Below, piece after piece: positions 927-34,829 of a DNA stretch of 44,316 nucleotides (position 1 is its first letter; each line of letters begins with the position of its first letter). Source of the stretch: a virus (Duplodnaviria; Caudoviricetes). Under the pieces are notes generated by a model. That model searched no databases, had not been told where the DNA came from, and saw only the letters and a program-made list of their open reading frames with translations. Made by a program: the position numbers and the translations under genes. The DNA lies in IMG/VR virus record IMGVR_UViG_3300025392_000357, positions 1 to 44,316 of that record; one strand, 5' to 3'.

Positions 927-1258
927 GCTTTTATCAAAACGTCATCCCTGTTCAGGTTGCTGCTGCGGCGGTTACAACGTCTACAACGACTATTTACACC
1001 GTTCCTGCGGCTACAAGAACTATAATTAAGGACATTAATATTACGGCGGGTAGTAGTATTACGGTGACAATTTACTTTGTACCAAGTGGCGGCACAGCGG
1101 GTACAGGAAATATCTTTTTGAATGTGGTTCCCGTTAATACGGGGGCGTCTTATTTTCATTGGGTGGGTACGCAGATCTTACAACCGGGTGGAACGATTCA
1201 AGTTGTTGCAAGCGGTACAGGTAGTAACATTTTTATAAGCGGTGGCGAAGCCACTTAA
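923..1258 (+). CDS. Small beta-rich structural protein (hypothetical)
   Basis: ATG at 923 overlaps the upstream TGA. Thr/Val/Gly-rich beta-sandwich-like sequence. Confidence 0.7.
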   Translation: MSFYQNVIPVQVAAAAVTTSTTTIYTVPAATRTIIKDINITAGSSITVTIYFVPSGGTAGTGNIFLNVVPVNTGASYFHWVGTQILQPGGTIQVVASGTGSNIFISGGEAT

Positions 1259-1268
1259 GGAGAGACGT

Positions 1269-2558
1269 ATGAGTATGTGGGACAACATGTCATTTGCCGA
1301 AAAACTGCTTGCAGTTGGCGCACTTGCGGCTACAGGCGGCGTAGCCGCTTCAGCGGTAGCAGGCGATGCTGCTATACCAGCATTAGGCGGTTCTGTTGCC
1401 GGAGGTTCTGTTCCAATTGATTTAACTGCTTCTGGTATCGGTGCTGGCGCAGGTAGTGCGGCTCCCGCCGTTGCTTCAGACGTTGTACCATTAGCAAGTA
1501 ATGCTGTTTACCCAAATGCCGCAGCTGCCGCAGCTTCACCAGGAACAGGAGCTGCAACAATACTTGGAAGTGCTGCCACAGAAGGTGCCGGTGCAGGTGC
1601 TACAGGTCAAATGGCGGTTGCCGATAATGCGTTGTATGCTAACGCTGCTAATCAGACTGCAACAACTCCAGCCCCGTGGTATTCAAATCTTTTACACAAC
1701 GCAATTACGCCTGCGCAGGGAGCAACCGGTACGTTTGGCACTGGAATGGGCTATGGCGCTGCTGGTCAGGCAGGCTTAATTGGGTTAGGCGGAGGACTTG
1801 GATACGCCGCTATAAGAGCTGCTGATAAAGGCTACGGCGTCCCCGCTCCAACAGTTGATACTGGACCTTTAAGTAGACTACAAGGTGCGCAGGGTGTTCC
1901 TTATTTAACAGACAGAGGCACAACAAAAAAGGCATCGGGGGGCTTATTGAGCGCCAATCCTAATCCTCCCATGTCGTATAACACGACGCCAACCTACAAC
2001 AATCCAACAAGCACGCCCGTGCCACAGCCGGTTATGCACTTTGCTGGAGGAGGTTCTTCACAATCCGATATTATTGCGCCAACTCCTGCGACCGGTGCAT
2101 ACGATCAATTAGGCGCTTATTTACAAGCTATGCAGGCTGCACAATCTCAGCAAGCAGGACAACAAGAATTGCAAGCACAACAAGATGCGCAACAACGTGC
2201 TGCTCAACAATCTTTGATGCCCGGTCCAACAATCGCTGCTGCAGGTGGTGGCATGATGTATGGCGCGGGGGGTGGTATTTCTAGCTTGGGACACTACTCA
2301 GATGGCGGTCAAATGCTAAAAGGTCCTGGAGACGGCATGTCCGACTCTATTCCCGCTACGATAGCCGGTAAACAACCTGCACGTTTAGCCAACGATGAAT
2401 TTGTAGTTCCTGCCGATGTTGTGTCTCACTTGGGCAACGGCTCATCTGATGCAGGTGCCAAAAAACTTTACGACATGATGGACAGGGTCAGACGCGCCAG
2501 AACAGGCACGCCTAAACAAGCTAAAGCCATTCACCCAGATCGGTACGTGCCAGGATGA
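1269..2558 (+). CDS. Putative internal virion protein, Ala/Gly-rich
   Basis: AAGGAGAG RBS before ATG 1269. Hydrophobic N-terminal segment. C-terminal GPGDGMSDSIPA..ARLANDEFVVPADVV motif of the type seen in phage virion/tape-measure proteins. Confidence 0.6.
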   Translation: MSMWDNMSFAEKLLAVGALAATGGVAASAVAGDAAIPALGGSVAGGSVPIDLTASGIGAGAGSAAPAVASDVVPLASNAVYPNAAAAAASPGTGAATILGSAATEGAGAGATGQMAVADNALYANAANQTATTPAPWYSNLLHNAITPAQGATGTFGTGMGYGAAGQAGLIGLGGGLGYAAIRAADKGYGVPAPTVDTGPLSRLQGAQGVPYLTDRGTTKKASGGLLSANPNPPMSYNTTPTYNNPTSTPVPQPVMHFAGGGSSQSDIIAPTPATGAYDQLGAYLQAMQAAQSQQAGQQELQAQQDAQQRAAQQSLMPGPTIAAAGGGMMYGAGGGISSLGHYSDGGQMLKGPGDGMSDSIPATIAGKQPARLANDEFVVPADVVSHLGNGSSDAGAKKLYDMMDRVRRARTGTPKQAKAIHPDRYVPG

Positions 2559-3271
2559 ACAACCAAGGAAAATCATTGCTAAGTGCGGTATTTGACGCGT
2601 TCCTTAGAAACGGAGCGGGGCTATTTATTGCCACTCGGTTAGCACCAACTGAGCAAGAGCACATGGCGCAATACTATTCTTTTATGCAGCCACAGCCACA
2701 CTCTGTTATTGTGGATCTTGGGTGCGGGTCTGGCGAAGCCGGAGCGCTTTTACAAAACATTGATCCCACACTAAAAGTCATCAATGTGGTGAACGACCCG
2801 GCGCTAATTGACTACATGATTAACGCTAAAAGAATATGCGTCAATGCGTCTTTTGAGAACACCCCCTTGCCTGATGCGTGCGCAGATTACGTCATGTTCA
2901 ATGAGTCTATTGGGTACGGGGACTTAGACGCTGTTTTTAAAGAAGCGAACCGTCTGCTCAGAGATGGTGGCGTGGTAACTATTAAAGACTTTACCGTCAT
3001 TAATCCGTCCGAGTCTAAAGTATTTTTAGAAAACTGGAGCTACACAATTCGTCAGCCTAGTGAATTTATTGCGGCGGCTTATAAGAATGGTTTTAGTGTG
3101 CAAGCTATGATTCACCCTGTTTCATACACCAAGCATTGGTTTGATATTATGGCGCAGTCCGATGAGGCGCGTGAATCTGCTTTGCAACATGACCCCCGGA
3201 ACTTACCGCTGTGTACAGTTTTGTATCGTTTAATCAAAGGTAAACTCAATGGATGCTCAGCAGATCAATGA
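2555..3271 (+). CDS. Class I SAM-dependent methyltransferase (small-molecule type; resembles sterol/tocopherol/geranyl-diphosphate methyltransferases)
   Basis: Motif I VDLGCGSG, PLPDACADYVMFNES, and FKEANRLLRDGGVVTIKD. No DPPY/NPPY or PC DNA-methyltransferase motif. Confidence 0.85.
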   Translation: MNNQGKSLLSAVFDAFLRNGAGLFIATRLAPTEQEHMAQYYSFMQPQPHSVIVDLGCGSGEAGALLQNIDPTLKVINVVNDPALIDYMINAKRICVNASFENTPLPDACADYVMFNESIGYGDLDAVFKEANRLLRDGGVVTIKDFTVINPSESKVFLENWSYTIRQPSEFIAAAYKNGFSVQAMIHPVSYTKHWFDIMAQSDEARESALQHDPRNLPLCTVLYRLIKGKLNGCSADQ

Positions 3272-3716
3272 GCAGCGTTTAGCATGGTTTGGTGGAAACC
3301 AAGATGCTGTCAACATGTATTCCATGTTTGTGGATTTGTCCCACTCATGGGACGATATTGTGGACGGAGATAAAGACATCCAAGAGGAAAAGATTAACCA
3401 AGCGTTTTTGACTGCACTTGTTTATCTACCCGCCAATCCTTTTTACAGACGAATACAAGATCAAGTTGCCCCTATGTGGCTGTCTATTGTTTCTGCGTAT
3501 GAAGTGGCAAATAAATTTGAAAAAGACAAAGACCCACATGGCTTAGAGATTGCTCATGGTTTGAGATATGCAGCGGGGCACATTGTTGCCTACGCAATCA
3601 TTGTATGTCTGGGTCAAGACAAGGCTAGAGGTGTGCTTCCAGATATGTGGAAAGACATTTATTTTGAAAGATTTGAAGAATACAAAAAGGAGCATTTAGA
3701 TGCTGAACATGCTTAA
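3249..3716 (+). CDS. Helical DDxxD-motif protein, possible isoprenoid synthase/prenyltransferase fold
   Basis: HSWDDIVDGD aspartate-rich motif, predicted all-alpha, later LRY. Overlaps both neighbouring genes. Confidence 0.5.
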   Translation: MDAQQINEQRLAWFGGNQDAVNMYSMFVDLSHSWDDIVDGDKDIQEEKINQAFLTALVYLPANPFYRRIQDQVAPMWLSIVSAYEVANKFEKDKDPHGLEIAHGLRYAAGHIVAYAIIVCLGQDKARGVLPDMWKDIYFERFEEYKKEHLDAEHA

Positions 3717-5001
3717 ATTAGTTAAATGGTTTTTTATTGACCAATATGTCCTTGGCATCTCTAGTGGTGGGGGTGCAAGCCAACCTGCGGCAACAAGTGC
3801 AACAAACACCACATCGAACATTTCGCCTTGGGCACAACCAGGTGTTTCGCAGCTCATTAGTTCGGGATTACAAAACGCGTTTCCTAACTACAATCAGGCT
3901 ACTGGGGAACTTGGACCGCAGTCTGGGTACACACCTTTTAATGTAAACAACGCCGCGGCAACTATAACAGACCCTGTAACGGGTCAGCAAAAAGCAAATC
4001 CCGCCTACGATCAAATGACTGCAACCGCCGCTGCGGCGGGTAAAAATAGTGTTGCAGACTTTACCGGTTTACAAAACCAGTCGTTTAATACTGCTGGAAA
4101 TATGCAAGTCCCTGGACAATATGGACAAGCAACTAGTTTAACCGGCATGGCTGCGCAAGGTAATTTAGGCACTATTGCGGGTGCGGGTCAATATGGTCAA
4201 GCAGGTTATAACGCGGGTATGGGCTACGGACAAAATGCCACAAATGCCAACGCCGTCAACGCATACATGAATCCGTATTGGCAAACTGCGCTGCAGCCCG
4301 GATTAAATTTGCTTAACCAGCAGTACGGCATACAACAAAATAACAACGCGACACAAGCTACGCAAGCCGGAGCATTTGGCGGTTCGCGCATGGGTATTCA
4401 ACAAGGACTAACAAATCAAGCTAATCAACTTGCGCAACAGCAAATGATTGGAACAGGGTTAAATAACGCCTTTAATACCGCACAACAAAACATGCAGCAA
4501 GCCTCCACTCTGGGTATGCAGGGCGCGCAACAAGGTCTTGCAGGAATTCAGGCACAACAAGCCGGGTATAACAACGCCGCTAATGCAGGCGTTAACTTGG
4601 CAAATATTGGTGCGCAGCAACTGGGCGCTCAACAAAGTATTGCAGGCTTGCAGAACGCATACGGCGCACAACAACAGCAACAAGCGCAAAACGTTATCAA
4701 CCAAGGCGCGCAGAACTACAGCACAATGCAGGCATACCCAATGCAGCAATTATCGCAATTGGAAAGTCTGTATACAGGTGCGCCGACAAGCACAACCACA
4801 CAAAACTTCCAAGCACCACCAAACATGCTGTCTCAGGTTGCAGGTCTTGGTATGGCAGGTTATGGTTTGAGTCAGTTAGGAACAGGTTCTACAACCACAC
4901 AGCCTACTAAGAGAACTGGTGGTCGAATCAAAGCCCCTGATAATCGTATGAAGAAACAAGGCGCAGGTCTGGGCGATCTTGCATTGTCCAAATTAGTATA
5001 A
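3700..5001 (+). CDS. Internal virion/DNA ejection protein (P22 gp7/gp20-like slot)
   Basis: Gln/Ala/Gly/Asn-rich low-complexity protein with QAGAFGGSR motif. N-terminal leader followed by SSGGG. Hydrophobic Gly-rich segment near the C-terminus. Confidence 0.7.
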   Translation: MLNMLKLVKWFFIDQYVLGISSGGGASQPAATSATNTTSNISPWAQPGVSQLISSGLQNAFPNYNQATGELGPQSGYTPFNVNNAAATITDPVTGQQKANPAYDQMTATAAAAGKNSVADFTGLQNQSFNTAGNMQVPGQYGQATSLTGMAAQGNLGTIAGAGQYGQAGYNAGMGYGQNATNANAVNAYMNPYWQTALQPGLNLLNQQYGIQQNNNATQATQAGAFGGSRMGIQQGLTNQANQLAQQQMIGTGLNNAFNTAQQNMQQASTLGMQGAQQGLAGIQAQQAGYNNAANAGVNLANIGAQQLGAQQSIAGLQNAYGAQQQQQAQNVINQGAQNYSTMQAYPMQQLSQLESLYTGAPTSTTTQNFQAPPNMLSQVAGLGMAGYGLSQLGTGSTTTQPTKRTGGRIKAPDNRMKKQGAGLGDLALSKLV

Positions 5002-5012
5002 GGAATTAAGCA

Positions 5013-6725
5013 ATGATGACTCCCGCAATGCAGGCTACACAGCCTCAAAATATTCCACAAACAACCGCGTTGTTGATGGATATGAAGAACAAAGGTACGC
5101 TACAGAGTTATGTAGCACAGCACCAAAACGATCCTGGTTACGGGGCGCTTTTGTCTTTAGCCATGACGATCAATCAGGCAGGAAACGACTCAAAAGCTTT
5201 GCAAGCCCAACTCCCACAACAAACGGTATCGCAACAAGAGTTAGCTAAACTAAACGCTGCCCCAACGCAAACCGCAGGCTTACCCAGTATTATGCCAAGT
5301 GCGGCTCCTAGCGCGGCTCCTGGCATGCCTCCCAGCGCGGCTCCCAATGCGGCTCCTGATCCCGAAACTATGCTTCGTCAAGCAATTGATGCGCGTATTG
5401 CTGCAAAGGACTTTGAGGGTGCCCAAAAGCTAATTAAAGAACTTGCTAAGATTGACGAAAAGGCTTCACCCGACGCAAACAAACTTCCAGAAGAACGCGG
5501 TATTGCTACGCTCAATCCACAAGCTTCTATTCCTGATGGTGGTATTGCTGGAGAACCAGACGAAGCAGAGACTAAACATTTCTTTCCGGGCGGTAGCACA
5601 GGTACGGAAGATGACGATACACAAAATACACCTGTTGTTGCAAATACTACGCCTATAAACCCAGATTACCCTTCGTTATTTAAACAAAACCCTGCCACAC
5701 CTGTTGCGGCGCCTACAGATTTTGTGCACATGTCTCCCCAAGACACAGCGAAGTTTATTCAATCTTATAACGCAAGTAACCCTGATCCTTTTGCAACGCA
5801 AACACAAACATTATTAAACGCACAAAACACCGCAGCGCAAAACGCACTTGAAAGAACTAAGTCATCTATTGCTAATCAAGGCGTGTATGGCGCAGCCCAA
5901 GAACAGCGGTTGAATGCACGTGAACAAAAGCTTGCTGATGCAGAAAATAAAAACTACGCTTTGTCTTTTATTCTTGGCGGTTTCAAAGCCATGTCTGCTG
6001 TTCCTGGCTCAAAAGATGAGAATGGCAACGTTATTGCTGGCGGTTTGGGTGGTCTGTCTTCTGGCGTGCAAACAGGTATAAAACACTATATTGCAGGTCA
6101 AGACAAGATTGAACAAGCCAGAGATACCTTAAATGAGGCAAAAGATAAACTTGACTTTATTAGGTTTAACCAAAAGAATCTTAACAATAAAGAACTTGAC
6201 GCAGCGCACAATGCTGTGGATAACTCTGTGGTTAAAGGTATGGAAACAGGAATTGCGGGGCTTAGACAACGAGAAGGCGTTAACAACGCCCAAGCTCTTG
6301 CCATACTAAAAACCGGGGCAGACGCTCAGATGAATTCAGAAAAAAATGCTACAAGTGTTCAAGTTGCAAAAATTGGATACCAAGGCAGCATACCTGCTCT
6401 GTATGCCGGTATTGGTGGTGGCGACATGGCAAAAGGTTTTGCTTTAGCCCACCAACCCGACAGTATGAAAATGGCTTTGGCGTTGGGTGTGGGAGATACT
6501 CAGCAAGAAAAAATTGCAGACGGGCTTTCTAAGTTTACAATGGCAACTACAAAAGAAAGTTTGCCACAAGCATGGGCAAGGTATCAAGCGGCTTGGGCAG
6601 GAAAAGAAAGCCCCACTTCACAAATGAAAAGTGCAGAAGATTTTGCAAGAGAGTGGTACGCAACCCAAAGAGCAGAACGAAGACCCGATCCTACTAACAA
6701 CCCAGGCTCAGGCGCACGTCCTTAA
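5013..6725 (+). CDS. Internal virion/DNA ejection protein
   Basis: AAGGAAT RBS. Helical/coiled-coil 570 aa between ejection genes. Confidence 0.6.
   Translation: MMTPAMQATQPQNIPQTTALLMDMKNKGTLQSYVAQHQNDPGYGALLSLAMTINQAGNDSKALQAQLPQQTVSQQELAKLNAAPTQTAGLPSIMPSAAPSAAPGMPPSAAPNAAPDPETMLRQAIDARIAAKDFEGAQKLIKELAKIDEKASPDANKLPEERGIATLNPQASIPDGGIAGEPDEAETKHFFPGGSTGTEDDDTQNTPVVANTTPINPDYPSLFKQNPATPVAAPTDFVHMSPQDTAKFIQSYNASNPDPFATQTQTLLNAQNTAAQNALERTKSSIANQGVYGAAQEQRLNAREQKLADAENKNYALSFILGGFKAMSAVPGSKDENGNVIAGGLGGLSSGVQTGIKHYIAGQDKIEQARDTLNEAKDKLDFIRFNQKNLNNKELDAAHNAVDNSVVKGMETGIAGLRQREGVNNAQALAILKTGADAQMNSEKNATSVQVAKIGYQGSIPALYAGIGGGDMAKGFALAHQPDSMKMALALGVGDTQQEKIADGLSKFTMATTKESLPQAWARYQAAWAGKESPTSQMKSAEDFAREWYATQRAERRPDPTNNPGSGARP
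5295..5357 (+). repeat. Short coding tandem repeat (GCGGCTCC core; PSAA-like peptide units)
   Basis: GCGGCTCC occurs four times, encoding PSAAPSAAPGMPPSAAPNAAP. Confidence 0.7.
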
Positions 6726-6734
6726 AAGTAAAAT

Positions 6735-9700
6735 ATGGCTCAATATCTACCTCTACCCGACGGCACTTCAGTAACAGTCAGGGAAGGCGAAACGCCAGAC
6801 CAGGCATGGGGGCGTGCATTACAGATGTATCCTGAAGCGTTTGGGTTTGCGCCCAAACCACCAGAGCCTAAGCCTCAACAACCAACTGGTTTTTTTCCAG
6901 GTTTAGGTCGCGGTTTACAAGGGGGTGCTGCACAAACAGGTGAAGCTTTAGGCGAACTTGGGGGGCTTGAAGGGCTTAGACAATATAGCGAAGAACAAAA
7001 ACGAATTGCTGCTGAAAAAGCAATTGGAGACGAGACTTGGCGCGGTAAAGCCGGTGAAGCTATTGGTAATGTAATAGGGCGTTTTGGTGCGCCTATGGCT
7101 GCGGGTGCAGTTGCGGCAGCAGCCGCTCCTGAATTTGCTTTGGCTAGTTTAGGTGCTGGAGCACTAGGATTTGTCGCTGCCGATCTTCCTTTAAACATTG
7201 GTGAATCTTTAGCCGCGCAACGCGAAGCCGGACAAACGCAAAGTGCTGCTAGAGCAACAGCCACAGGTATAGCCAAGACTGCTATTGATACGCTTGGTGG
7301 AGAAGTGCTTGCCGGACCTATGCGTTCTATTATTGGCAAGACGGCTATTGAGCAAGCCCAACCCTTAGTTAAAGAAGTGCTTGCGGGGAACATGACCGTA
7401 GCACAGGCAACCGAAAAACTTAGCGGTTTCTTGAAAAACTTTATGCAGTCCACCGCCCAAAACGCGGTGGTTGGTCCGGCTACTATGGTGGCTCGTGATG
7501 TCACAGAACGTGTAGGACTTGGACAAGAAGTTGCATCCCCAGAAGCCATGAAACAGTACGGACAAGATCTGTTGTCCGGCGTTGAAGTGTCTCCTGTGTT
7601 TGGCGCTTTACAAGCACGTAGTACTGTTAAGGGTGCTAAGGCAGCGCTTGAAAAGGCAGGAGAGGCACGCCAAGCCGCTCAAGCTGCTACGCCACCCACA
7701 CCTCCAGACCTATTGACAGCCCCAGGCATACCCATGCCTGGACCAGAGACAGAGGAAAAAGCACAAGCGCCTGATGTACTAAGGATGGTGGATGAGCACA
7801 AGGCAATGACTGCCCAAGTGCCAGAGATTTATGAACGATTGCAACAGGCAGTAGCGGCACGTGACACCGCCAATATTCGTCCTTTGGCTGATGCGCTACA
7901 AGGACTAAACTACCGTATCGAAAATCTTGGTAAAAAAATTACCGATGCGGGGGGTGTACTCGGTACTCCCGAAGACTTTGAAACTACGGCTGCCGCAGAA
8001 CTTAAAACCCACGATAAAAAAATTGCAGGCGCAGAAAAGAAACTTGACGCGGCAACGGCTGAAGGCGACTTTGAAAACATTAACAAACACGTTGACAAGT
8101 TAGACGAACTTCAACAGCAGCGCAAAGAAATTGAAGCAAAGCATGAACAAGCTCGTGCGCAATTGCAAAAGCAAGAAATAAAACCCGGTGAGACCTTTCC
8201 TCTATTTGGGCGTGGTCAAGAAGGTGCAGGTAAACCTGAAACACCACAGGAGTACGTACCCGCTGCTGCGCCTAGTCTTAAACTGGAAGATATTAAAAAC
8301 GCAATCCCCACGGTGTATAACCCTGCGGAGCCTACCACTCGCCTTGTAGAGAAAAAGATAAACGGTAAGTATGTTCAACAGGTTGTGGAAAATCCACTAC
8401 CTAAAAATGCTAATGAACCACTTAGCCCAGAAAACACAGACAGAGCGCACAAACGAATATTCAGGGCAGTTACGCAAGGATTAGAAAACGGTTTAACCAA
8501 TGACCAAATAACTCAACAAATCCAAACGGATACAAGAGGCGGTCTTACAACTGACACTTTAAATAATCTAAACAAGCTGTTAGACGAACAACGTGCAGTA
8601 CGGGAAAACCCACCTGTAAAGAAATTTGAACTCAACAAACAACCTGAAGCGGTTGAAGAAGCCAAACAAACAGAAGTTGATCAACGCCTAAAGCAAGCGT
8701 CTATTGAAGACAACGTGAACACTGCTGAGAAAATGGCAAGTGAGATTCAAAAGCTACAGGCTCAAAAAGATAAACTGCGTGGTTCTGAGCTTACCGACAA
8801 TGCTGCTTTGCTATCAGACCTTGAGGCTAAGAAAGCAGCGTATGACCAACATATTAAAGACAACTTAACACCCGACACTAAACAGTTGGATTTGTTCACG
8901 CCACAAAATGAGCGTGCAACTGGTCTTCGTAATGAAGACCCCGCCACAATAAAAGCGTTGGTTGATGAGCACCAGCTTAGAACCGCAAAAGAATCTTTGG
9001 CAAGACGTGACCAAGAAGCGGCTGACAAAGCTAGACTTATCAAAGCGTTGGATGATCGTCTAAATTTAGGTGGTCGCAAAGTAACTCGTACTGCAACGCC
9101 AGAAGAATACGACCGTATTACAAACGAAATCAACCGCCTTCAGTTATTGGTTGAGCAACCTATTGGTAACAATACACGTTCTTATTTGCAACAAGCAATT
9201 GACTTGGCAGCCAAGCATCAAACTTTACTTGACAAAAAAGCTGCCGGAGCTAAAGGACACATTGAGCGAACAATTGGCGCAGTACTTAAAGAGTACAACA
9301 GGATCATGGACAAACACATCCTGCCAATTAGAGACAGAATTGTTAGACTTCACCAAAGTTTGTACAGCGTTGAGCGTGCTGAGACGGCAACTGAGTTGAC
9401 TGAGAAAAGAAAAGCACAAGAAGAAAAACAACGTCAAAGTACAATTCGTCCTCCATCAGAAGCCGAGGCTAAAGAAGGCGTTATAGGTCGGGCAGTCATG
9501 TCCAGAGCCGCTAAGACTACAGCAAGAATTAACAAAGGTGACGTAGTCACCGAAGCCGTTAAGTCCAGCAAGATGCGCGACATCGCCCAGATGCTTGGGC
9601 GTGATACGCCTGAATTTGAAACGTACATGAACGCTCGCCTCAAAAAGCAAGAGGCACTTAATAAAAAGTACGGTGAAAAGAGTGAGCAAGCATTAGAGTT

Positions 9701-12700
9701 CAAACGCTTATCCGGCGAGGAGACTTCGTCTAAAGCCATCGAGCTTGGTCAAAAAACACCTGAGTACAAAGAAGAACTTGCCAAGCAAGTTGAGTTCATG
9801 CGTAATGCGCTTGGACAAAGCAAACAAGAATTGCCAACCAAACGTACAGGCGCTGCAACCCGCAACGTCTCTCGCGCTAAACGTGAAGAACTTACAGGTA
9901 CACCTGAGAGCCGTGAAGCCACGACAAAGCGTGGTGAGATTGCTCGCAATAGAGCAACGCCAGAGCAAGTGCGTGCACTGCAAAACAAATCCGAAGCTGC
10001 GCCTAAAGTAACGAAGACACGCCGTAAAGCAACAAGCGTGGAGCAAGGCAGACTGCGCAGTATGTTTGACGAGGCGATCCGCTCAGAGCGTGAGGGTGGT
10101 GAAGATAGCTTTGCCCGTGGTGTAGAGACTGAGAGTCCAAACTTAAACGAAACCCAGCTTCGCGCTATTGATGACAACGACATCAATGCCGTATATACCG
10201 ACATTGCTAATGATAAGAACGCGCCTGAGATTAACCGTGTAATTGCCCAACGTCTGTCTGACTTACTTGATAACACCAACGTAGTCATTAGGGACAAGAT
10301 TACAGATAAAGAAGGAAATGAAGTTCTTGGTGTGTCTCTTGGTGACACAATTGGGTTGAGTCGTAATGGTGGTTTATCACACGAGGTTTTGCTACACGAA
10401 GGCATTCACCAAGGTGTGGACCATGTGCTTGATATGCCTGAAGCCAACCTCACCCCAATCCAAACGGTTGCTAAACGTGAGTTGCAAGCTTTGCACGCAG
10501 CTATAAAAAATGATGCGTCAATTACAAGTAGCACAGCAAAAGGCAGTCTTAAAGAGTTTGCAGCCGAAGCTATGTCTAACAAGAAGCTTCAAGCCCAGTT
10601 GCGTGAGAAAAAGTGGAAACTCTCAAATGCTTGGGATGGATTTAAAAGCATCATACTTCGTTTGCTTGGTGTGTATAAAGGCGGTAAGACTGAACCCGAG
10701 ACTATGCTCGGCGCTGCTATTCAATCCATTGATGCCTTAATGAGACCTAGCAGTGAGCGTCCAAAAGCACCAGAGCGCTCACCATCACAAAAAGACATTG
10801 CCGCGCTACATACGGGTAGTAACTCGATGAAACAGTTTGCCGAACAGTTCGGTGACTTGATCAAACAAAAAGACCGTACACCTGAAGATGCGGAGCGCAT
10901 TGGCGCTGATGTGCTTGAGCGTATGGAGCTTGACCCTCAAGCGTTTGTTAAGGTTCCTACCTCTGCTGAAGACGTTTTAAAACAGTATGAAAACTATAAA
11001 CTTGTTCATGAATTGTCAGAGAGCGAACCCCGCAAACTGAGCAAAGAAGAAGAAACGCTGTTTAAAAAAGTTGAAGAATACAAACGTCTCGATGCTGAAG
11101 CCAAGGCGCTTGAAGATGATTTAAAGGATGCTTTACCTCCAGGTAAAACATTGGCGAGACCTGCAAGAAAAGACGGTAGCGCTGCCCCCGTTATGCGCAA
11201 TATGTCTCAAGAAGAATACGATAATCTTAACGAGGCTAAGAAAAAAGCTAAGATTGCGCATGGTAATTTAAATTCTTTAAGGTATGAGACTATTATGTCG
11301 GACGGTAAACCGTACGACCCAGAAAACCCACTTCACTATGCTGAAGCTACAGCAGAAACATTTGCTAATTTAAAAGCAAAAGAAGACCCTACAGTAGCAC
11401 GACGAGAAGCACGTGAAATTAAAAAACAAAGAACGCATGATTTGCGTTCTTTAGTTGACTTATTAAAAGACAATCCTAGCTATACTAGCGTTGAAAATGC
11501 TTTAGTTGCTAAAGCTGCAGCAAAGTGGGCAGTTGTATCTGATAAAGACGGTCGTTTAAAACTTGCTACGATTGAATCTAATAATAGACATAATGTAGCG
11601 GTTGTGGGACACGAGGCTGCCGATGCTGTTATTCAAGAATTGCGTGCAGGTAAATCCCTTAAAGATGCGTTCCTTGACGGTCTGCAAAAAAATGCAGATA
11701 AAAACGCTAAAGACAATAGTACCAAAAATGGTTGGCAACTATTTAAACAAAGCCACTCAGAACAAGATGCTGTTGAATTAAACAAGGCTTGTGCAGGAAC
11801 AGAATGGTGTACAGGTAGAACTGTTGGTACTGCACGCTCGCACATTGGTGGTGGAGACTTCTATGTAAATTACAAAGACGGTCGCCCTGAAGTTGCTGTT
11901 CGTATGAACGGACAAGACAGAATTGGAGAAGTGCGAGGCAACACACCAAACCAAGCGCTTAATAAAGAACAACAAGCTATTGCCCAGGAGTTCCTTAAGA
12001 ACTCTGACTTTTCAAATGCTAAAGATTACACATCAGAGTTTGCAAGAAAACAGTTAGCTATTGATATAGCTAAAGGTGTTGCCGACATGCCGATTAGCGA
12101 TTTGATTAACTCTAGAATTAGCGTTGATATTTCTTTTGGCGACAATAAAACTGCTAGTATTGATGATTACCAAATAAATCACTTTTTGTCTTTTAGGTCT
12201 GTAGATGGCTACGGCGGTAGACCAGAAGCTAGTGAAAAAGTTAAAGAGTTTTTTCGCAATAAGATTTTAAAAGCTGTTGGTAAAGCTTGGGACAACGGTT
12301 ATTATCTAGGCGCTAAATTTGATTTATATGATAGAGAACCAAACACAATTACGCTAAATGGTAAAGAATACAAGCCTAGGCTAGAAGATGCTAAAGCAGC
12401 AAAACATCTTCGACTTTCTTTGCATAAAGGAGAAAACATTACTCTACCTAATTTAGAGTATGTCGATGGTATAGATATGTTTGGTGCAGATGAAGGTTCT
12501 TTAAGTGTTGATTTACCAAACCTTAAAAAAATAAATAACCCCATCACAGCTTTTGGAGAAAAACCTAATGATAGTATTTTAACCATTCCATCAAATGTTG
12601 ATGTGGATGTAAGAGGTTTTGGTTCCAGAGATAGTTATATAACTATTAAAGGCGCTACTCAAATAACTATACCGTATGAGAGCCTAAGAAAGAGTGTTTT

Positions 12701-15700
12701 ATATTTAGATGCGCCAGATGCTTTATACGTAAATGACCTTGGTGTTTTAGAAGCCGTTAAAAAAGGAATGGCTGACGCGCTAGAGGTTGCGTACACACAT
12801 GCGGTCTGGGCTAAAGACTTGGGTCCTATCCATGAAAACTACGATGATCTTGTTGCACGCGCAGATAGAGAGCCTGGAGATAGCGAGGAGCAACAAAAGA
12901 TTGGGAAATCCCTTGAGGCTTTACACAACTTTAATACAGAATTTGCTGTTAAGTTAGAAAAAGATGTTGTTAAAAGACTTGATCCAGAGCAAGTGGACAT
13001 TGTTGCACACGATCAAAAAATAGCTGAGGCAATTGCACAAGGTGCAATAGATAGTCGCCCTAGTAAAATGAATAGTTATTTTTCTGCTTTAAGTGAAGCG
13101 ATTGCTAGAGCTTTTGATCCGCAAGAACAAATAACGCAAGAAGGTTTACAAAAAGCACAAGCACTAATTAGAGATGTGCTTGAAGGAGAACACGAATACA
13201 TTGAAGAAAATGTAAAGCAAGACGTGCTTAAGAGCTTGGAAAAAGGAAAAACTGTTATAGATGCGCCTAATCGTATTGGTGACATCAAACCACCAGAGAT
13301 TGCCAACCAAGCTCCTCCCGAACCTGCTTACGCTCGTCGTGCTAAATACGACGAAGACAATCCTTTGACTCGCTTTACCAAGAAGATCATTGCGCAAGAG
13401 CCTGGCTTCAAGGAAATGAAAGAGAACCTGACCAAGAACGGGGCGCTCATGGCTGAAATGAATGCCGTGGATATGCGTGCTCCGGTCATGAAGGCAATCA
13501 ACATTGGCGCTGAAGCTATTGGCAAACGTGATATTGCAACCCAAGTCAAGCACTTCATATTGACTGCGGATGACAAAGTCCAAATGTCAATGGCAACTTT
13601 GAAACACGGACCGCTTCAGTTTGTTAAAGATTCAAAAGGTTTGATCGAAATACAAACAAGCAACAAGGACTCTGGTCTTGATGTATTCAAAGCTATGTCC
13701 GACATACCGCTCGGCAATGCAACAGCCAAGGTAGATATGGCAACCGCGTATCAGGCTGCCATCCGTGCAGGTAACAAAGGACTTAAAACACTTGACTTGG
13801 GCGCTTTGCAATTAAGTGATCAAGAACTTAAAGAAACCCTAGACTATGTTAACTCCAATCCAGAACTAAAGACCGCGCTTGAAAAGGTTCGTACTCGGTA
13901 CAACGCATACAACAAAGGTCTTATTAACTTCCTTGCCGACTCAGGCAAGATTACCAAAGCCAAAGCAGCCGAGCTATTAAAAGACAATGACTACTTACCG
14001 TTCTACCGTGTTGATGAAGACGGCAAAGCTGCGCTTGTGTTTAGTGATGATGTACAGATAAACGTAGGCGACATCAAACATCAGCCGTATTTGCACGCGC
14101 TCAAAGGTGGCGAGACTAAGATATTGCCGCTTGACAAGTCGATGCTACAAAACACATTGTTGATCAACGATGCAGCGCTTACCAATTTGGCAAGCCGTTC
14201 AATGGCGTATGCGTTTCAACAAATCGGAGCGCAACGCGCACCAGGCGTTAAGAATGACATGGTCATCCATTCAGGGCAAGCACCTGCTGGCGACAACATT
14301 CTGACGTTTAATCAACAACCTGACCCCAAGAATCCAAAAGACGAAGGTAAGCGTTGGATACGAATTGACACCAAAGGCACGCTTATGGAAGGCGTGCCCA
14401 CAGAAATGGTGGTCAAGAGCTTGGAAGGTACTGCGCTTACACTACCCGGTTATTTAAAATTGGCAGGAGCCGCATCCGATTTGCTTCGTACCGGCGTAAC
14501 ACGCACACCGCTTTATATTGCTCACCAATTGCTTCGTGACCCTGCATCATCCGCACTCACAGGCGGTATTGAAAGCAATCCATTCATGGCTATTCTTAGA
14601 GCAGGGGCGCAGTTTGGTAAGGCGGGCTTTAGTCAGACTAAAGCTACACCAGAAATGGCAGAGCTTATTAAGCGCGGTATTATCCAAAGTAATGTGTTTA
14701 AAGGCGACAGTAGTGACCTATCTAAGTTTGCCATTCAGTTAGCAAGCGGTAAAGATATGAACGCCTTACAACGTGCAGTTGCTTGGGCAGACAGAGCAGC
14801 GATGAACGCCGATGCTGCGACCCGCGCTATTATTTGGCAAGATGCTAAGAAGCAAGGACTGTCAGACGTTGAAGCCAACATCGCTACACGTGAGTCTATT
14901 AACTACCAAAAGCGTGGGTTGTCTGCTTCAGTACAACATAGCAACCGCATGATTCCGTTCATGGGCGGTCAAATACAGGCGCTCAATGTGTTTGCCAAAG
15001 CTGCTCGTGGCAATATGCCGTTCAACAAAGAACTGGACATCAAGAAAAAGTTTTACAACGGTGCTTTGACTTTGTCCGCTTTAGGCTTGGCGTACGGCTT
15101 TTCTCTAGCAGGCAATCCTTACTACGAGCAAGCAAGTCTTAAAGACAAGTATGGCAACTTCTTCTTGTTCTTACCATTTGTTGATGAGCCAGTTAAGATA
15201 CCAATTCCTTACGAGGTTGGATACTTCTTCTCGCTTGGCGTTGCTGCTGCGGATGCTATGTCTTCTGCTGTGGAAGGTACGGACCAGATCAAAGCGCTTG
15301 CTAATATTTTCTCTGGTTCGATTCCTGGCTATAGTTCTAAAGGCGTACCACAAGTTATTAAGCCTGTGCTTGAAGCGGTTACAAACACCGACTTTAATAC
15401 GCTCCAACCAATCGAGTCGGCTCGTTTAAAAGCACTTGACCCTGCGCAAAGATACACTACAAACACAACGGAGCTTGCTAAACAAATTAGTAAGAACACA
15501 GGTGGCGTGGTGTCTCCTATTATGATCGAGCACTTTGTTAAGGGCTACTTAGGTCAGATACCGCTTGCCACCGCGGCTGCAACCAACAGCTTGTTTGATA
15601 CTGGTGAGCGCATGCCTATCGAGCACGCATCTGAAATGCCTTTTATTGGTAGTGCGTTCCAGAAGAAGTACGGCGGTGAGCAAGCTAACGAAGCCTACGA

Positions 15701-16010
15701 AATTGCAGAAGATGCGATCAAGGCTAAGAACACGCTCAACAATGTTGCAAGAGAACAGGGCAGGGAAAAAGCCAAAGAGTACCTGAACGACAACTATGCA
15801 CGTATTGCGTTAGCACCTGTTGCTGAAAAATACAAAGCAGGTATGGGCAAACTTGCAGCCGAAGAACGTATTATCCGCGGTCGTCCTGCACCTAATGAAG
15901 TAAGGCAAGCCCAGCTTGATAAGATAGAAGCAGCGCGTCAGCTACTTGCATCTAAGTACTTAGAGGCTTTCCAAAAGGTTAGAAAGAATCCGCCACAACC
16001 TCATCGGTAA
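6735..16010 (+). CDS. Giant internal virion polyvalent protein (zincin-like HExxH domain, WC-motif PcfJ-like domain, C-terminal LPD38-like domain)
   Basis: 3091 aa. LLHEGIHQ at 10395-10409. CAGTEWCT...EVAVRM...IGEVRG near 11790-11940. C-terminal IPFMGGQIQ...KIPIPYEVG...IEHFVKGYLG pattern like LPD38. Last gene of the ejection module. Confidence 0.7.
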   Translation: MAQYLPLPDGTSVTVREGETPDQAWGRALQMYPEAFGFAPKPPEPKPQQPTGFFPGLGRGLQGGAAQTGEALGELGGLEGLRQYSEEQKRIAAEKAIGDETWRGKAGEAIGNVIGRFGAPMAAGAVAAAAAPEFALASLGAGALGFVAADLPLNIGESLAAQREAGQTQSAARATATGIAKTAIDTLGGEVLAGPMRSIIGKTAIEQAQPLVKEVLAGNMTVAQATEKLSGFLKNFMQSTAQNAVVGPATMVARDVTERVGLGQEVASPEAMKQYGQDLLSGVEVSPVFGALQARSTVKGAKAALEKAGEARQAAQAATPPTPPDLLTAPGIPMPGPETEEKAQAPDVLRMVDEHKAMTAQVPEIYERLQQAVAARDTANIRPLADALQGLNYRIENLGKKITDAGGVLGTPEDFETTAAAELKTHDKKIAGAEKKLDAATAEGDFENINKHVDKLDELQQQRKEIEAKHEQARAQLQKQEIKPGETFPLFGRGQEGAGKPETPQEYVPAAAPSLKLEDIKNAIPTVYNPAEPTTRLVEKKINGKYVQQVVENPLPKNANEPLSPENTDRAHKRIFRAVTQGLENGLTNDQITQQIQTDTRGGLTTDTLNNLNKLLDEQRAVRENPPVKKFELNKQPEAVEEAKQTEVDQRLKQASIEDNVNTAEKMASEIQKLQAQKDKLRGSELTDNAALLSDLEAKKAAYDQHIKDNLTPDTKQLDLFTPQNERATGLRNEDPATIKALVDEHQLRTAKESLARRDQEAADKARLIKALDDRLNLGGRKVTRTATPEEYDRITNEINRLQLLVEQPIGNNTRSYLQQAIDLAAKHQTLLDKKAAGAKGHIERTIGAVLKEYNRIMDKHILPIRDRIVRLHQSLYSVERAETATELTEKRKAQEEKQRQSTIRPPSEAEAKEGVIGRAVMSRAAKTTARINKGDVVTEAVKSSKMRDIAQMLGRDTPEFETYMNARLKKQEALNKKYGEKSEQALEFKRLSGEETSSKAIELGQKTPEYKEELAKQVEFMRNALGQSKQELPTKRTGAATRNVSRAKREELTGTPESREATTKRGEIARNRATPEQVRALQNKSEAAPKVTKTRRKATSVEQGRLRSMFDEAIRSEREGGEDSFARGVETESPNLNETQLRAIDDNDINAVYTDIANDKNAPEINRVIAQRLSDLLDNTNVVIRDKITDKEGNEVLGVSLGDTIGLSRNGGLSHEVLLHEGIHQGVDHVLDMPEANLTPIQTVAKRELQALHAAIKNDASITSSTAKGSLKEFAAEAMSNKKLQAQLREKKWKLSNAWDGFKSIILRLLGVYKGGKTEPETMLGAAIQSIDALMRPSSERPKAPERSPSQKDIAALHTGSNSMKQFAEQFGDLIKQKDRTPEDAERIGADVLERMELDPQAFVKVPTSAEDVLKQYENYKLVHELSESEPRKLSKEEETLFKKVEEYKRLDAEAKALEDDLKDALPPGKTLARPARKDGSAAPVMRNMSQEEYDNLNEAKKKAKIAHGNLNSLRYETIMSDGKPYDPENPLHYAEATAETFANLKAKEDPTVARREAREIKKQRTHDLRSLVDLLKDNPSYTSVENALVAKAAAKWAVVSDKDGRLKLATIESNNRHNVAVVGHEAADAVIQELRAGKSLKDAFLDGLQKNADKNAKDNSTKNGWQLFKQSHSEQDAVELNKACAGTEWCTGRTVGTARSHIGGGDFYVNYKDGRPEVAVRMNGQDRIGEVRGNTPNQALNKEQQAIAQEFLKNSDFSNAKDYTSEFARKQLAIDIAKGVADMPISDLINSRISVDISFGDNKTASIDDYQINHFLSFRSVDGYGGRPEASEKVKEFFRNKILKAVGKAWDNGYYLGAKFDLYDREPNTITLNGKEYKPRLEDAKAAKHLRLSLHKGENITLPNLEYVDGIDMFGADEGSLSVDLPNLKKINNPITAFGEKPNDSILTIPSNVDVDVRGFGSRDSYITIKGATQITIPYESLRKSVLYLDAPDALYVNDLGVLEAVKKGMADALEVAYTHAVWAKDLGPIHENYDDLVARADREPGDSEEQQKIGKSLEALHNFNTEFAVKLEKDVVKRLDPEQVDIVAHDQKIAEAIAQGAIDSRPSKMNSYFSALSEAIARAFDPQEQITQEGLQKAQALIRDVLEGEHEYIEENVKQDVLKSLEKGKTVIDAPNRIGDIKPPEIANQAPPEPAYARRAKYDEDNPLTRFTKKIIAQEPGFKEMKENLTKNGALMAEMNAVDMRAPVMKAINIGAEAIGKRDIATQVKHFILTADDKVQMSMATLKHGPLQFVKDSKGLIEIQTSNKDSGLDVFKAMSDIPLGNATAKVDMATAYQAAIRAGNKGLKTLDLGALQLSDQELKETLDYVNSNPELKTALEKVRTRYNAYNKGLINFLADSGKITKAKAAELLKDNDYLPFYRVDEDGKAALVFSDDVQINVGDIKHQPYLHALKGGETKILPLDKSMLQNTLLINDAALTNLASRSMAYAFQQIGAQRAPGVKNDMVIHSGQAPAGDNILTFNQQPDPKNPKDEGKRWIRIDTKGTLMEGVPTEMVVKSLEGTALTLPGYLKLAGAASDLLRTGVTRTPLYIAHQLLRDPASSALTGGIESNPFMAILRAGAQFGKAGFSQTKATPEMAELIKRGIIQSNVFKGDSSDLSKFAIQLASGKDMNALQRAVAWADRAAMNADAATRAIIWQDAKKQGLSDVEANIATRESINYQKRGLSASVQHSNRMIPFMGGQIQALNVFAKAARGNMPFNKELDIKKKFYNGALTLSALGLAYGFSLAGNPYYEQASLKDKYGNFFLFLPFVDEPVKIPIPYEVGYFFSLGVAAADAMSSAVEGTDQIKALANIFSGSIPGYSSKGVPQVIKPVLEAVTNTDFNTLQPIESARLKALDPAQRYTTNTTELAKQISKNTGGVVSPIMIEHFVKGYLGQIPLATAAATNSLFDTGERMPIEHASEMPFIGSAFQKKYGGEQANEAYEIAEDAIKAKNTLNNVAREQGREKAKEYLNDNYARIALAPVAEKYKAGMGKLAAEERIIRGRPAPNEVRQAQLDKIEAARQLLASKYLEAFQKVRKNPPQPHR

Positions 16011-28271: not shown

Positions 28272-28862
28272 TTAAATCAAATTAAAAGAAAGCGTTACTC
28301 TTTCTTGCGATACTGCATCTACCCAATGAACTAACTCAGAGGGAAAGATAAGTATGTCTCCTTTTTTGCCTAAATACTTTACACCGTTTTGAAACTCAGT
28401 TGGCTCTGCGCCATCTGTATAGTATATGACTCCTGAAAATACAGCGAAGTGTTGATGCCTTGGGACGTAATCCCCTACGTTATAAAAGCATGTCCAAAAA
28501 TCATACCCGTTAAAGTGTCCGTCATATTTCTTAACTCTAAATTCTCTACGGTGTGCCTCACCAAAAATCTGTGACTGCACATACTCACCAAGATAGATAA
28601 GAAACGCTTGCGTAAATGAGTTCTCAAACGCTACCGTCGGGACTGGTACATGAGAAAAGTTATCGCTTACCGTAGTACGTTGGCGTAATAAGTAAAACAA
28701 CTCTTGGCTTTTGATGCTTCTACAAATGTCAACAAACGAACCTATCTCCTGCATCAGCTTGTCAGGGATACGTCCTTGCATGATCGGTGCGTTACCTTCT
28801 AAAAACTTAAAGTCTTTAAATAACGCTAAAACTTTATGCGGTATGGGGGGAAAAGTACTCAT
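28272..28862 (-). CDS. Putative 2OG-Fe(II) oxygenase (HxH type)
   Basis: PRHQH..FSGVIYY...GDILIFPSELVHWV...RVTLSFN double-stranded beta-helix motif set. Confidence 0.8.
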   Translation of the reverse strand: MSTFPPIPHKVLALFKDFKFLEGNAPIMQGRIPDKLMQEIGSFVDICRSIKSQELFYLLRQRTTVSDNFSHVPVPTVAFENSFTQAFLIYLGEYVQSQIFGEAHRREFRVKKYDGHFNGYDFWTCFYNVGDYVPRHQHFAVFSGVIYYTDGAEPTEFQNGVKYLGKKGDILIFPSELVHWVDAVSQERVTLSFNLI

Positions 28863-29374
28863 TGTTTAATTGGAAATATTTGAACAGTTGCTCTTACCAC
28901 TGGTGCATCTAAAGATACAGGCGTGGTGCAATGGGGCGCATTTGCCTTGTTAAACACCGCAGTATTAAATGTTGGTATGTACCCTTTAACATACCCAGGC
29001 TCATCTGCTAAGTACAAAAAATATCCACCCCAGTCTTTATCCCACACGGGGTTTAAATAAATAGTGATAGCATCCGCATATCCATCGTCATTGTGCCAAG
29101 GAATGTAGCTGAGTCTTGTCCACGCATAGTTCATAACACAGTACTTACTATGACTGATAAACCCCTTTCTTATAAGGTTGTTTAATATTAACTGCTTTAT
29201 GTTTTCAGGATATGAGCGCACCAATACTGAATGACTAGCTTTGACGATGCCCTGCGCCCACATAAAGTTGCTACACCATTGATCTTTAGGTTCTTTTAAA
29301 GTCTTTAGTGTGTCTTCGTACAACTCGTTACATAAACTTGCAGGCAAAACATCCGTGTGAATTAATACGCTCAT
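28859..29374 (-). CDS. 2OG-Fe(II) oxygenase, prolyl-hydroxylase-like
   Basis: IPWHND, IYLNPVWDKDWGG, PHCTTPV and RATVQIF. Confidence 0.85.
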   Translation of the reverse strand: MSVLIHTDVLPASLCNELYEDTLKTLKEPKDQWCSNFMWAQGIVKASHSVLVRSYPENIKQLILNNLIRKGFISHSKYCVMNYAWTRLSYIPWHNDDGYADAITIYLNPVWDKDWGGYFLYLADEPGYVKGYIPTFNTAVFNKANAPHCTTPVSLDAPVVRATVQIFPIKQ

Positions 29375-33707: not shown

Positions 33708-34829
33708 TTACACGTACGCATACACCGAGTCGAACAAGTCGATCAGTAATGTGTCAGGGTCTTCGACCCACGCACGAGCGAGTGCCTCGCTTATCCATTC
33801 ATCCGTTATGCGACTGCGGTCGATCATCTTGATCGCCATGTCTACGTCCTCTGGGTACACCGCCTCAGCCATAAGCTCGAGCAAGAAGTCACACATACCT
33901 ACCTGTGCATCGAGTAGTGCATCTTGTACGTCAGCCATGAAGCACTCTTTGTAAGACATCATGTCCTTGCCGTAACTAAATGAGTTGTCGGTAGTCTTGT
34001 CCCAGTTGTATGTATAGCCACCGTATGCGTAGTCTGACTGATCCCACTTGCTCTCACGTATCTTAGGGTCACGACTGGTTGGAAGTAAGTCCCAGTCCAT
34101 GTGTATGACACGATCAGCAAGGGCTTGGAAGTGGACAAGGTCAAGCGACTCAAACTCGCTATGCTCACGGTCGTAGCCTACGCTGATATTCGTACACTCG
34201 GGGATGATGTCAACAAACTCTGCGGTATCTGTATACACACCGCTATCGTCAGGCGAGTACATGAGCGCCATGCTGACATTGAGTGCATCGGATAAGTCCT
34301 GTGCAAACACATCGCTACAACACCGTGACCAACCCTGATGTGTAATGACCGAGTCAATGCCACGCCTATCGAACGCAACCGCACGGTCAAACTCAGCGAG
34401 TAGCTCGGGATAGTTCTTAGCCACATACTTAGCACCGATGCCACCTACTTCCTCACCTTGCGTAAAGATATAGTAGCCATTCACACCCTCGTGCATCATG
34501 TGCATAAGCAAGGCAATACCCGCACCGTCATCGGCACCGAGGGGCGCACCACACGCAGACCATTTGGTTGCAGTCATGGTGATATTGTTCTTACCCTCGA
34601 CCTTGTGCACAGTATCTACATGAGATACGAATAGTGTGCGGTGTCTTGACTCGGTGCGGTAATCCACATGCAAATTGCCACACGCATCAATAAAGGACTT
34701 GTCCCATACCTCACGTGGGCATGTGGTTGCTATCCAATTGGTGAAGTCAATGTTGGTGATTGACTTGTGTGGTCGCTTAAGACTAAGTGCGTACTTGAGT
34801 GTTTTGTATAGTGTAGATTTCTTATTCAT
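33708..34829 (-). CDS. Zn-dependent exopeptidase, M28/M20-like
   Basis: SHVDTV, LGADDGAG, GEEVG, AFDRRG, YTD and EH metal-ligand motifs. Confidence 0.85.
   Translation of the reverse strand: MNKKSTLYKTLKYALSLKRPHKSITNIDFTNWIATTCPREVWDKSFIDACGNLHVDYRTESRHRTLFVSHVDTVHKVEGKNNITMTATKWSACGAPLGADDGAGIALLMHMMHEGVNGYYIFTQGEEVGGIGAKYVAKNYPELLAEFDRAVAFDRRGIDSVITHQGWSRCCSDVFAQDLSDALNVSMALMYSPDDSGVYTDTAEFVDIIPECTNISVGYDREHSEFESLDLVHFQALADRVIHMDWDLLPTSRDPKIRESKWDQSDYAYGGYTYNWDKTTDNSFSYGKDMMSYKECFMADVQDALLDAQVGMCDFLLELMAEAVYPEDVDMAIKMIDRSRITDEWISEALARAWVEDPDTLLIDLFDSVYAYV

Follow-up and report, generated by a model that had tools for sequence, protein, structure and literature searches.

The window analysed here is the whole of the IMG/VR virus record IMGVR_UViG_3300025392_000357 (Duplodnaviria; Caudoviricetes), a linear stretch of 44,316 nucleotides that is estimated to be 68% complete. 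The structural operon opens the window and runs from tail-side genes through a 438-amino-acid (aa) Gly/Ala-rich protein to two small genes, which are our subject, and from there to proteins of 433, 570 and 3091 aa. The first of the two, which we call MTase (2555..3271, plus strand), encodes a 238-aa class I S-adenosylmethionine (SAM)-dependent methyltransferase; the second, h155 (3249..3716, plus strand), encodes a 155-aa protein that is predicted to be all-helical and that carries a strongly conserved acidic motif.

A preliminary description of this DNA, made from the sequence alone, had pointed to two enzyme-like genes chained to each other and to their neighbours by overlaps. The reading frames and all three overlaps were verified: an ATGA at 2555-2558 couples the stop codon of the 438-aa gene to the start codon of MTase, MTase and h155 share 23 bases (3249-3271), and h155 and the gene for the 433-aa protein share 17 (3700-3716). 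The MTase segment quoted in that description, NESIGYGDLDAVFKEANRLLRDGG, is also present, as residues 116-139 of the protein. Judging by the relatives that we could detect (945 for h155 and 47 for MTase), both are conserved genes rather than chance frames.

Conservation and predicted fold of h155

The h155 family is large and nearly all of it is metagenomic, with 945 matches at 90% clustering and 688 clusters at 50% identity. It corresponds to no Pfam family, and its PHROG match, phrog_21390, itself has no assigned function. When h155 and two divergent members were compared by tblastn with 50,697 phage records, Achromobacter phage CF418P1 was the only cultured phage found to carry a homologue, which in that genome lies at 5369-5842 and precedes genes of 395, 591 and ~2680 aa.

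Conservation was assessed in two sets, one of 95 diverse members and one of 150 representatives gathered without use of the motif. D35, D39 and R106 are invariant throughout the first set. In the second, the acidic motif WDDxxDxD (W34-D35-D36-x-x-D39-x-D41, encoded at 3348..3371 on the plus strand and located at the C-terminal end of helix 2) retains D35 and D39 in 145 of 145 sequences each, D36 and D41 in 138/145 each, and W34 in 135/145; elsewhere in the protein, N63 is kept in 141/146, E91 in 126/143 and the nearly invariant R106 (codon at 3564..3566, plus strand) in 139/140. The invariance of D35, D39 and R106, together with the near-invariance of D36, D41, N63 and E91, holds down to ~25% identity. 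Neither set contains a second conserved DDxxD: the motif is a single one, spanning residues 35-39 and extended to D41. In P0157, a metagenome protein of 315 aa, two h155 domains stand in natural tandem, each with WDDxIDKDK.

The preliminary description had singled out HSWDDIVD (residues 32-39) and a later RY pair (residues 106-107), and had noted that an Asp motif that varied among homologues would tell against its proposal. The motif is where it was placed and its Asp residues do not vary (D35 and D39 are both kept in 145/145), but of the RY pair only the Arg is conserved, Y107 being poorly kept (64/140).

An AlphaFold2 model of h155, based on the 95-sequence alignment, has eight helices and a predicted local distance difference test (pLDDT) score of 95.3. 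In a wide search with VIA-align, 23 of the top 30 rows for this model were prenyl diphosphate synthases or prenyltransferases, aligning over 134-155 residues; alignments to the 27 unrelated rows, out of 50 listed, spanned just 76-108. Z scores against the trans-prenyl diphosphate synthases are middling, at 8.2 to 6.4. The best full-length structural matches include the small subunit of heptaprenyl diphosphate synthase and MoeN5, and the top single match is a small subunit, 5h9d_D. Foldseek against BFVD returned four uncharacterised members of the family and nothing else. In the ESM Atlas, queried with h155 and P0157, DUF2600, HEPPP_synt_1 and polyprenyl_synt make up three of the four nearest named clusters, with scores of 0.76-0.81 that we treat as leads only.

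Set beside the proteins that it most resembles in fold, h155 differs in several respects. The trans-prenyl diphosphate synthases (polyprenyl_synt: GGPPS, OPPS and HexPPS) and MoeN5 are ~260-350 aa long and have two Asp motifs, whereas h155 has 155 aa, eight helices, one Asp motif, no significant sequence similarity to them and a setting among phage structural genes. The small subunits of heptaprenyl diphosphate synthase (HepS; PDB 5h9d chain D and 9kp1 chain A; HEPPP_synt_1) resemble h155 only in fold, as predicted. The known subunits of this kind have neither catalytic activity nor the Asp motif, and their genes accompany one for a large catalytic subunit, whereas h155 keeps an invariant Asp motif and no gene for a large subunit was found among the window open reading frames (ORFs) scanned; HEPPP_synt_1 (PF07307) itself is absent from the record and does not appear in the list of 25 of the 33 Pfam families that were matched weakly. 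On its predicted model, h155 looks like a cut-down isoprenoid synthase or a small subunit of one, a likeness that falls short of established membership.

The methyltransferase and its pairing with h155

MTase belongs to the Pfam family Methyltransf_11 (PF08241; E 2.5e-9), scoring 38.1 bits against a gathering cut-off of 21.2. Its SAM-binding motif I, VDLGCGSGE (residues 53-61, encoded at 2711..2737 on the plus strand), follows the DxGxGxG pattern, which is invariant (D54, G56, G58 and G60) in 24 members of the family. No DNA-methylase family was matched in the Pfam scan. The MTase family is small, and tblastn of MTase against the same 50,697 phage records gave zero matches.

For comparison with solved structures, the profile of the 24-member family was searched against the PDB. 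The best match was a generic 'type 11' methyltransferase (9e-9), and the other leading matches were PH0226, MitM, glucose O-methyltransferase, phosphoethanolamine N-methyltransferases and sterol C-methyltransferase; these nearest solved relatives use small molecules or lipids as substrates, not protein or DNA. The preliminary description had proposed a special likeness to geranyl diphosphate (GPP) C-methyltransferase. That enzyme does appear in the search (4f84 at E 0.019 and 3vc1 at E 0.035), as do, also weakly, BezA (E 0.0056) and the C6-farnesyl diphosphate (FPP) methyltransferase (E 0.12), but at about rank 34-38 it is preceded by some 33 other methyltransferases, and it is not among the 5 matches of the single MTase sequence (E up to 0.01). 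The NES..GG segment that had been read as its sign aligns equally well to glucose O-methyltransferase and to the type 11 methyltransferase. By these comparisons MTase is a class I methyltransferase of the small-molecule or lipid type, without a specific tie to prenyl-diphosphate methylation. The GPP 2-C-methyltransferase and 2-methylisoborneol synthase (3vc1, 4f84) likewise pair a SAM methyltransferase with a DDxxD protein; unlike in that system, and quite apart from the ranking just given, the partner of MTase is not a full-length terpene cyclase.

In a prophage-like locus of Limnohabitans (L090:7285-8631), the gene two places 3′ of h155 encodes a 448-aa protein that joins a methyltransferase of the MTase family to a PAPS-reductase domain. 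This fusion probably explains the weak match of the window's MTase to phrog_424, 'PAPS reductase'.

Seen from the side of MTase, the association with h155 is strict. A metagenome scan with the MTase profile yielded 34 loci at 33-100% identity, including the window's own contig and five that are 99-100% identical to the window. An h155 domain is adjacent to MTase, or in frame with it, in 32 of the 34; the remaining two contigs end 2 and 75 bases past MTase, so that 32 of the 32 testable loci have h155. MTase precedes h155 in 28 loci and follows it in 4, and in three loci the two are fused in one frame. Fusion proteins occur in both orders: MTase comes first in P0163, P0196, P0245, P0318 (whose h155 part is 62% identical to that of the window) and L091, which lies on a contig of a Polaromonas metagenome-assembled genome (MAG), and h155 comes first in P0222 and P0261. 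These methyltransferases all form a single family, 26-43% identical to the window's MTase over most of the length of the latter. The preliminary description had taken the methyltransferase and the DDxxD protein for a functional pair and had held that failure of the two to co-occur would refute it; from the MTase side they do co-occur, in 32/34 loci and with fusions in both orders. We regard this as strong genomic evidence that MTase and h155 share a function, with h155 as the constant partner.

From the h155 side MTase is rare, being present in 7 of 80 IMG/VR h155 loci (in 10 of the 80, the h155 domain is identical to that of another locus). A quick tree built from 90 h155 sequences is too poorly resolved to count the gains of MTase: its distribution takes 5 changes, of which the starred branches force only 1.

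The slot ahead of the ejection proteins

In the window and in related loci, h155 lies directly 5′ of an ejection-type gene. The upstream neighbour of the pair, the 438-aa Gly/Ala-rich virion-module gene (1242..2558, plus strand), encodes a protein whose C-terminal ~100 residues are conserved in related loci, and in 50 of the 80 h155 loci a gene of this type overlaps h155 directly by 4 bases. Downstream, as we read the sequence, an AAGGAG ribosome-binding site (3687..3692, plus strand) lies within the 3′ end of h155, 7 bases ahead of the ATG of the next gene. That gene (3700..5001, plus strand) encodes the 433-aa Gln/Asn/Gly-rich ejection-type protein, which matches phrog_4287, 'DNA ejection protein', at E 3.3e-4 and occupies the position of internal virion protein (IVP) B. 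It is followed, in the IVP-C position, by the 570-aa internal-virion-type protein (5013..6725, plus strand), which has no family match and has homologues in 4 of the 80 IMG/VR loci (L010, L053, L075 and L083), and, in the IVP-D position, by the 3091-aa giant polyvalent protein (6735..16010, plus strand), which has a C-terminal LPD38 domain (PF18857, E 6.3e-21; residues 2797-2970), an HExxH-type motif, HEGIH, and no PHROG match.

This arrangement is that of the IVP-A slot, in which T7 (gp13) and, with acetyltransferase-like homologues, P22, epsilon15 and phiRIO-1-like podoviruses carry a small gene before IVP-B, IVP-C and IVP-D (Hardies et al. 2016, PMC4819975). That account describes T7 IVP-A as non-structural yet required for morphogenesis, reports that IVP-A matches acetyltransferases, and mentions an alternative protein in the same slot of phiRIO-1, PA11 and CW02 (PMC4819975). 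The earlier assignment of the locus to the T7 gp13 slot, with an acetyltransferase-like gene there in other podoviruses, agrees with it. IVP-A and h155 nevertheless differ, since the former is acetyltransferase-like in that account (PMC4819975) whereas h155 is modelled as all-helical and lacks the GNAT fold. The published 'alternative IVP-A' of phiRIO-1, gp39, was considered as a relative of h155 and proved unrelated on comparison.

GNAT-like genes do occur next to h155. Although the window has none, a GNAT-fold gene of 135-151 aa stands directly upstream of h155 in 9 of the 80 loci (in L009, upstream of MTase), and the order GNAT, MTase, h155 recurs in two metagenome loci. The model of this GNAT-like neighbour has a pLDDT of 85.9 and 423 PDB matches at E <=0.001, with acetyltransferases on top. 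P0209, judged by eye against the GNAT-like A2 family, is a fusion of h155 with a GNAT-like domain. It had been proposed that the pair replaces an acyltransferase and asked whether DDxxD and GNAT genes alternate in the slot; instead of alternating, they co-occur side by side, and even in one protein. The gene orders suggest that GNAT and h155 can work side by side, and because a GNAT-fold gene co-occurs with it, h155 is an additional component rather than merely a swap for IVP-A. The gap that forms the slot also accepts other inserts.

The ejection-type proteins encoded 3′ of h155 (window 3700-3800; loci L009-L091) begin with a variable N-terminal leader of ~20-28 residues, which is of two types, MLIPNKFNGY... 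or MFKL..LL.F.... After the leader comes a run of 3-11 Gly residues, followed by the conserved core, ...T.TNIPEYARPY...; a few homologues begin at the Gly tract itself. To judge from its sequence, this N-terminus resembles a leader that carries a site for processing or docking.

Five loci contain an extra Gly-rich gene with a leader of the MLIPNKF type (L009:2788-3882, L047:2525-4138, L048:2810-4567, L051:3761-4567 and L057:2142-3362). In GNAT-carrying loci this gene sits between the 438-aa-type gene and the GNAT gene, and its leader indicates that the slot there holds a duplicated ejection-type gene.

Copies of h155 in bacterial genomes were found at 18 loci, some of them prophage-like. Others are cellular homologues, ~30% identical, that keep the WDD motif and have no phage genes nearby (L094:5980-6465, L100:1753-2250 and L095:5980-6519; also L096-L099 and L102). 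Their neighbours are giant RTX/VWA adhesins, a LapG-type protease (Peptidase_C93) and a LapD-type c-di-GMP receptor. The hosts of these adhesin-linked copies are Halomonas, Billgrantia and Vreelandella (Halomonadaceae), an Alcaligenaceae MAG and a betaproteobacterial MAG, and on the quick tree the copies form one clade.

Candidate functions of h155

How podoviruses load and prepare the proteins that are injected ahead of their DNA is poorly understood, and we know of no chemistry for T7 gp13. An almost wholly uncultured and very large phage family here puts an enzyme-like invariant motif and a prenyl-synthase-like predicted fold in that slot, and h155 attracts a dedicated methyltransferase and a GNAT enzyme through adjacency and fusion. 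In the published literature we found no account of such a prenyl-synthase-like protein in a phage ejection or virion context.

What is established is the reality of the genes, their conservation, the predicted fold of h155 and the genomic linkage; beyond these, we infer. The reading that we favour, at a probability of roughly 40%, is that h155 is a Mg2+- and diphosphate-binding tailoring or assembly enzyme of the ejection module, with MTase as a dedicated partner acting on the same substrate. The acidic motif, together with R106, E91 and N63, would hold Mg2+ and a diphosphate-bearing ligand. For this ligand a prenyl diphosphate of the host appears the best candidate, and any prenyl donor would be the host's because no isoprenoid gene was found among the 35 window ORFs scanned. 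h155 would be the constant core of the module, with MTase or GNAT as optional add-ons, and the target may be an ejection protein itself, or else a lipid or small molecule that the loading of these proteins requires. Since a natural tandem, P0157, exists, the working unit may be an h155 dimer, which could supply a second copy of the Asp motif. Were h155 catalytic, phage infection would turn out to include a new step of post-translational or lipid tailoring, and h155 might be the isoprenoid-synthase fold in minimal form. Because MTase is strictly paired with h155 and a sole cultured carrier, CF418P1, exists, the question can be tested directly.

A number of results count against this enzyme. The protein is about half the size of an isoprenoid synthase, with about half its helices, and it has one Asp-rich motif where a class I isoprenoid synthase has two. 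The preliminary description had expected a terpenoid-synthase fold, and the best full-length matches are indeed prenyl diphosphate synthases, but Foldseek of the model against the PDB found nothing (best E 1.6), the Z scores are middling and neither sequence nor profile comparison gave a significant match to polyprenyl_synt (PF00348) or its related Pfam families: when the 95 h155 members were scanned with Pfam at E up to 1, no isoprenoid family stood among the 25 listed of the 33 that matched weakly. The h155 profile has no match below E 0.08 among PDB sequences. In hhalign, comparison with 11 polyprenyl synthases from five bacterial genomes gave a non-significant probability of 0.8 (E 0.073); the sole local alignment, non-significant as it is, sets HxWDDxxDxD on the first Asp-rich motif, HDDxxD, of those synthases. 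The genomic setting adds three further points: no isoprenoid gene was found among the 35 ORFs just mentioned, MTase is absent from 73 of the 80 h155 loci and its role is therefore dispensable for the core role of h155, and the cellular branch beside RTX adhesins is, from its gene neighbourhoods, as compatible with a chaperone that serves giant exported proteins as with an enzyme.

The chief rival to this enzymatic role takes up that last point. On this view h155 has no catalytic activity and acts as an assembly chaperone or adaptor for the internal virion proteins, a functional counterpart to T7 IVP-A. It would hold giant export-competent proteins or their N-terminal leaders and dock the optional GNAT and MTase enzymes, and its acidic motif would bind a structural cation or basic stretches of protein instead of a substrate. 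We consider this somewhat unlikely. In its favour, h155 sits in the IVP-A slot and is translationally coupled to both of its neighbours; its top structural match, 5h9d_D, is a non-catalytic small subunit; the attached enzymes vary (MTase in 7/80 loci, GNAT in 9/80); and the neighbours of the cellular clade, giant RTX/VWA adhesins accompanied by LapG and LapD, are likewise translocated proteins of very large size. A docking site could be provided by the leader, poly-Gly tract and core that the downstream ejection proteins have in common. Against a chaperone, the invariance of D35, D39 and R106 and the near-invariance of D36, D41, N63 and E91 are more typical of a metal or active site, and the non-catalytic small subunits of prenyl synthases known to us have lost their Asp motifs.

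A much more specific form of the enzymatic role is improbable. Here h155 would be a class I isoprenoid enzyme of half the usual size whose dimer brings two copies of DDxxD to face one cavity, like the two motifs of a full-length synthase; using a host prenyl diphosphate, and with MTase or GNAT as co-tailoring enzymes, it would lipid-modify an ejection protein or make a small lipid for penetration of the envelope, and the cellular branch would do the same for RTX adhesins. If true, phage DNA delivery would include a chemical step that is very widespread and has so far gone unrecognised.

The scheme of the preliminary description, in which MTase makes a C-methylated prenyl diphosphate that h155 then attaches to an ejection protein, taking the place of an acyltransferase and helping the protein into the membrane, now looks very unlikely. 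It does draw on the pairing, which is obligate from the MTase side, on the prenyl-synthase-like model with its invariant DDxxD, and on the presence of BezA (E 0.0056), GPP C-methyltransferase (E 0.019-0.035) and C6-FPP methyltransferase (E 0.12) among the weak PDB matches of MTase. Those prenyl-diphosphate methyltransferases are, however, outranked by ~27 to 57 other methyltransferases, and their similarity to MTase goes no further than the common Rossmann core; the NES...GG motif is generic and the RY pair is not conserved; GNAT genes co-occur or fuse with h155 instead of alternating with it; and 73 of the 80 h155 loci do without MTase.

That h155 mimics the small subunit of a heteromeric prenyl synthase, binding a trans-prenyl synthase of the host so that the supply of lipid carrier or of side chains for quinones is diverted or cut off, is highly unlikely, whatever the resemblance in predicted fold: the gene lies in a late structural operon, coupled to ejection genes rather than placed among early host-takeover genes, it keeps an Asp motif that such subunits have, to our knowledge, lost, and its dedicated MTase and GNAT partners would be left unexplained. 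The idea that MTase is an independent moron, for example an anti-restriction nucleic-acid methyltransferase in a permissive operon gap, gains something from its presence in a minority of h155 loci, its patchiness on the quick, poorly resolved tree and the other inserts that the same gap takes, but it is extremely unlikely given that every one of the 32 testable MTase loci has h155 next to MTase or fused with it, that both orders occur, with at least 7 distinct fused proteins, and that the Pfam type is Methyltransf_11, with no DNA-methylase family matched.

In the rest of the window, the terminase and portal genes lie at 39.8-43.9 kb and the replication module is on the minus strand. Two adjoining 2OG-Fe(II) oxygenase-like genes (196 and 171 aa) are found in the early/replication region (28272-29374, minus strand), and at 33708-36120, also on the minus strand, a gene for a 384-aa peptidase-like protein (phrog_4191, with a weak Peptidase_M28 match) overlaps that for a 432-aa protein without assigned function.

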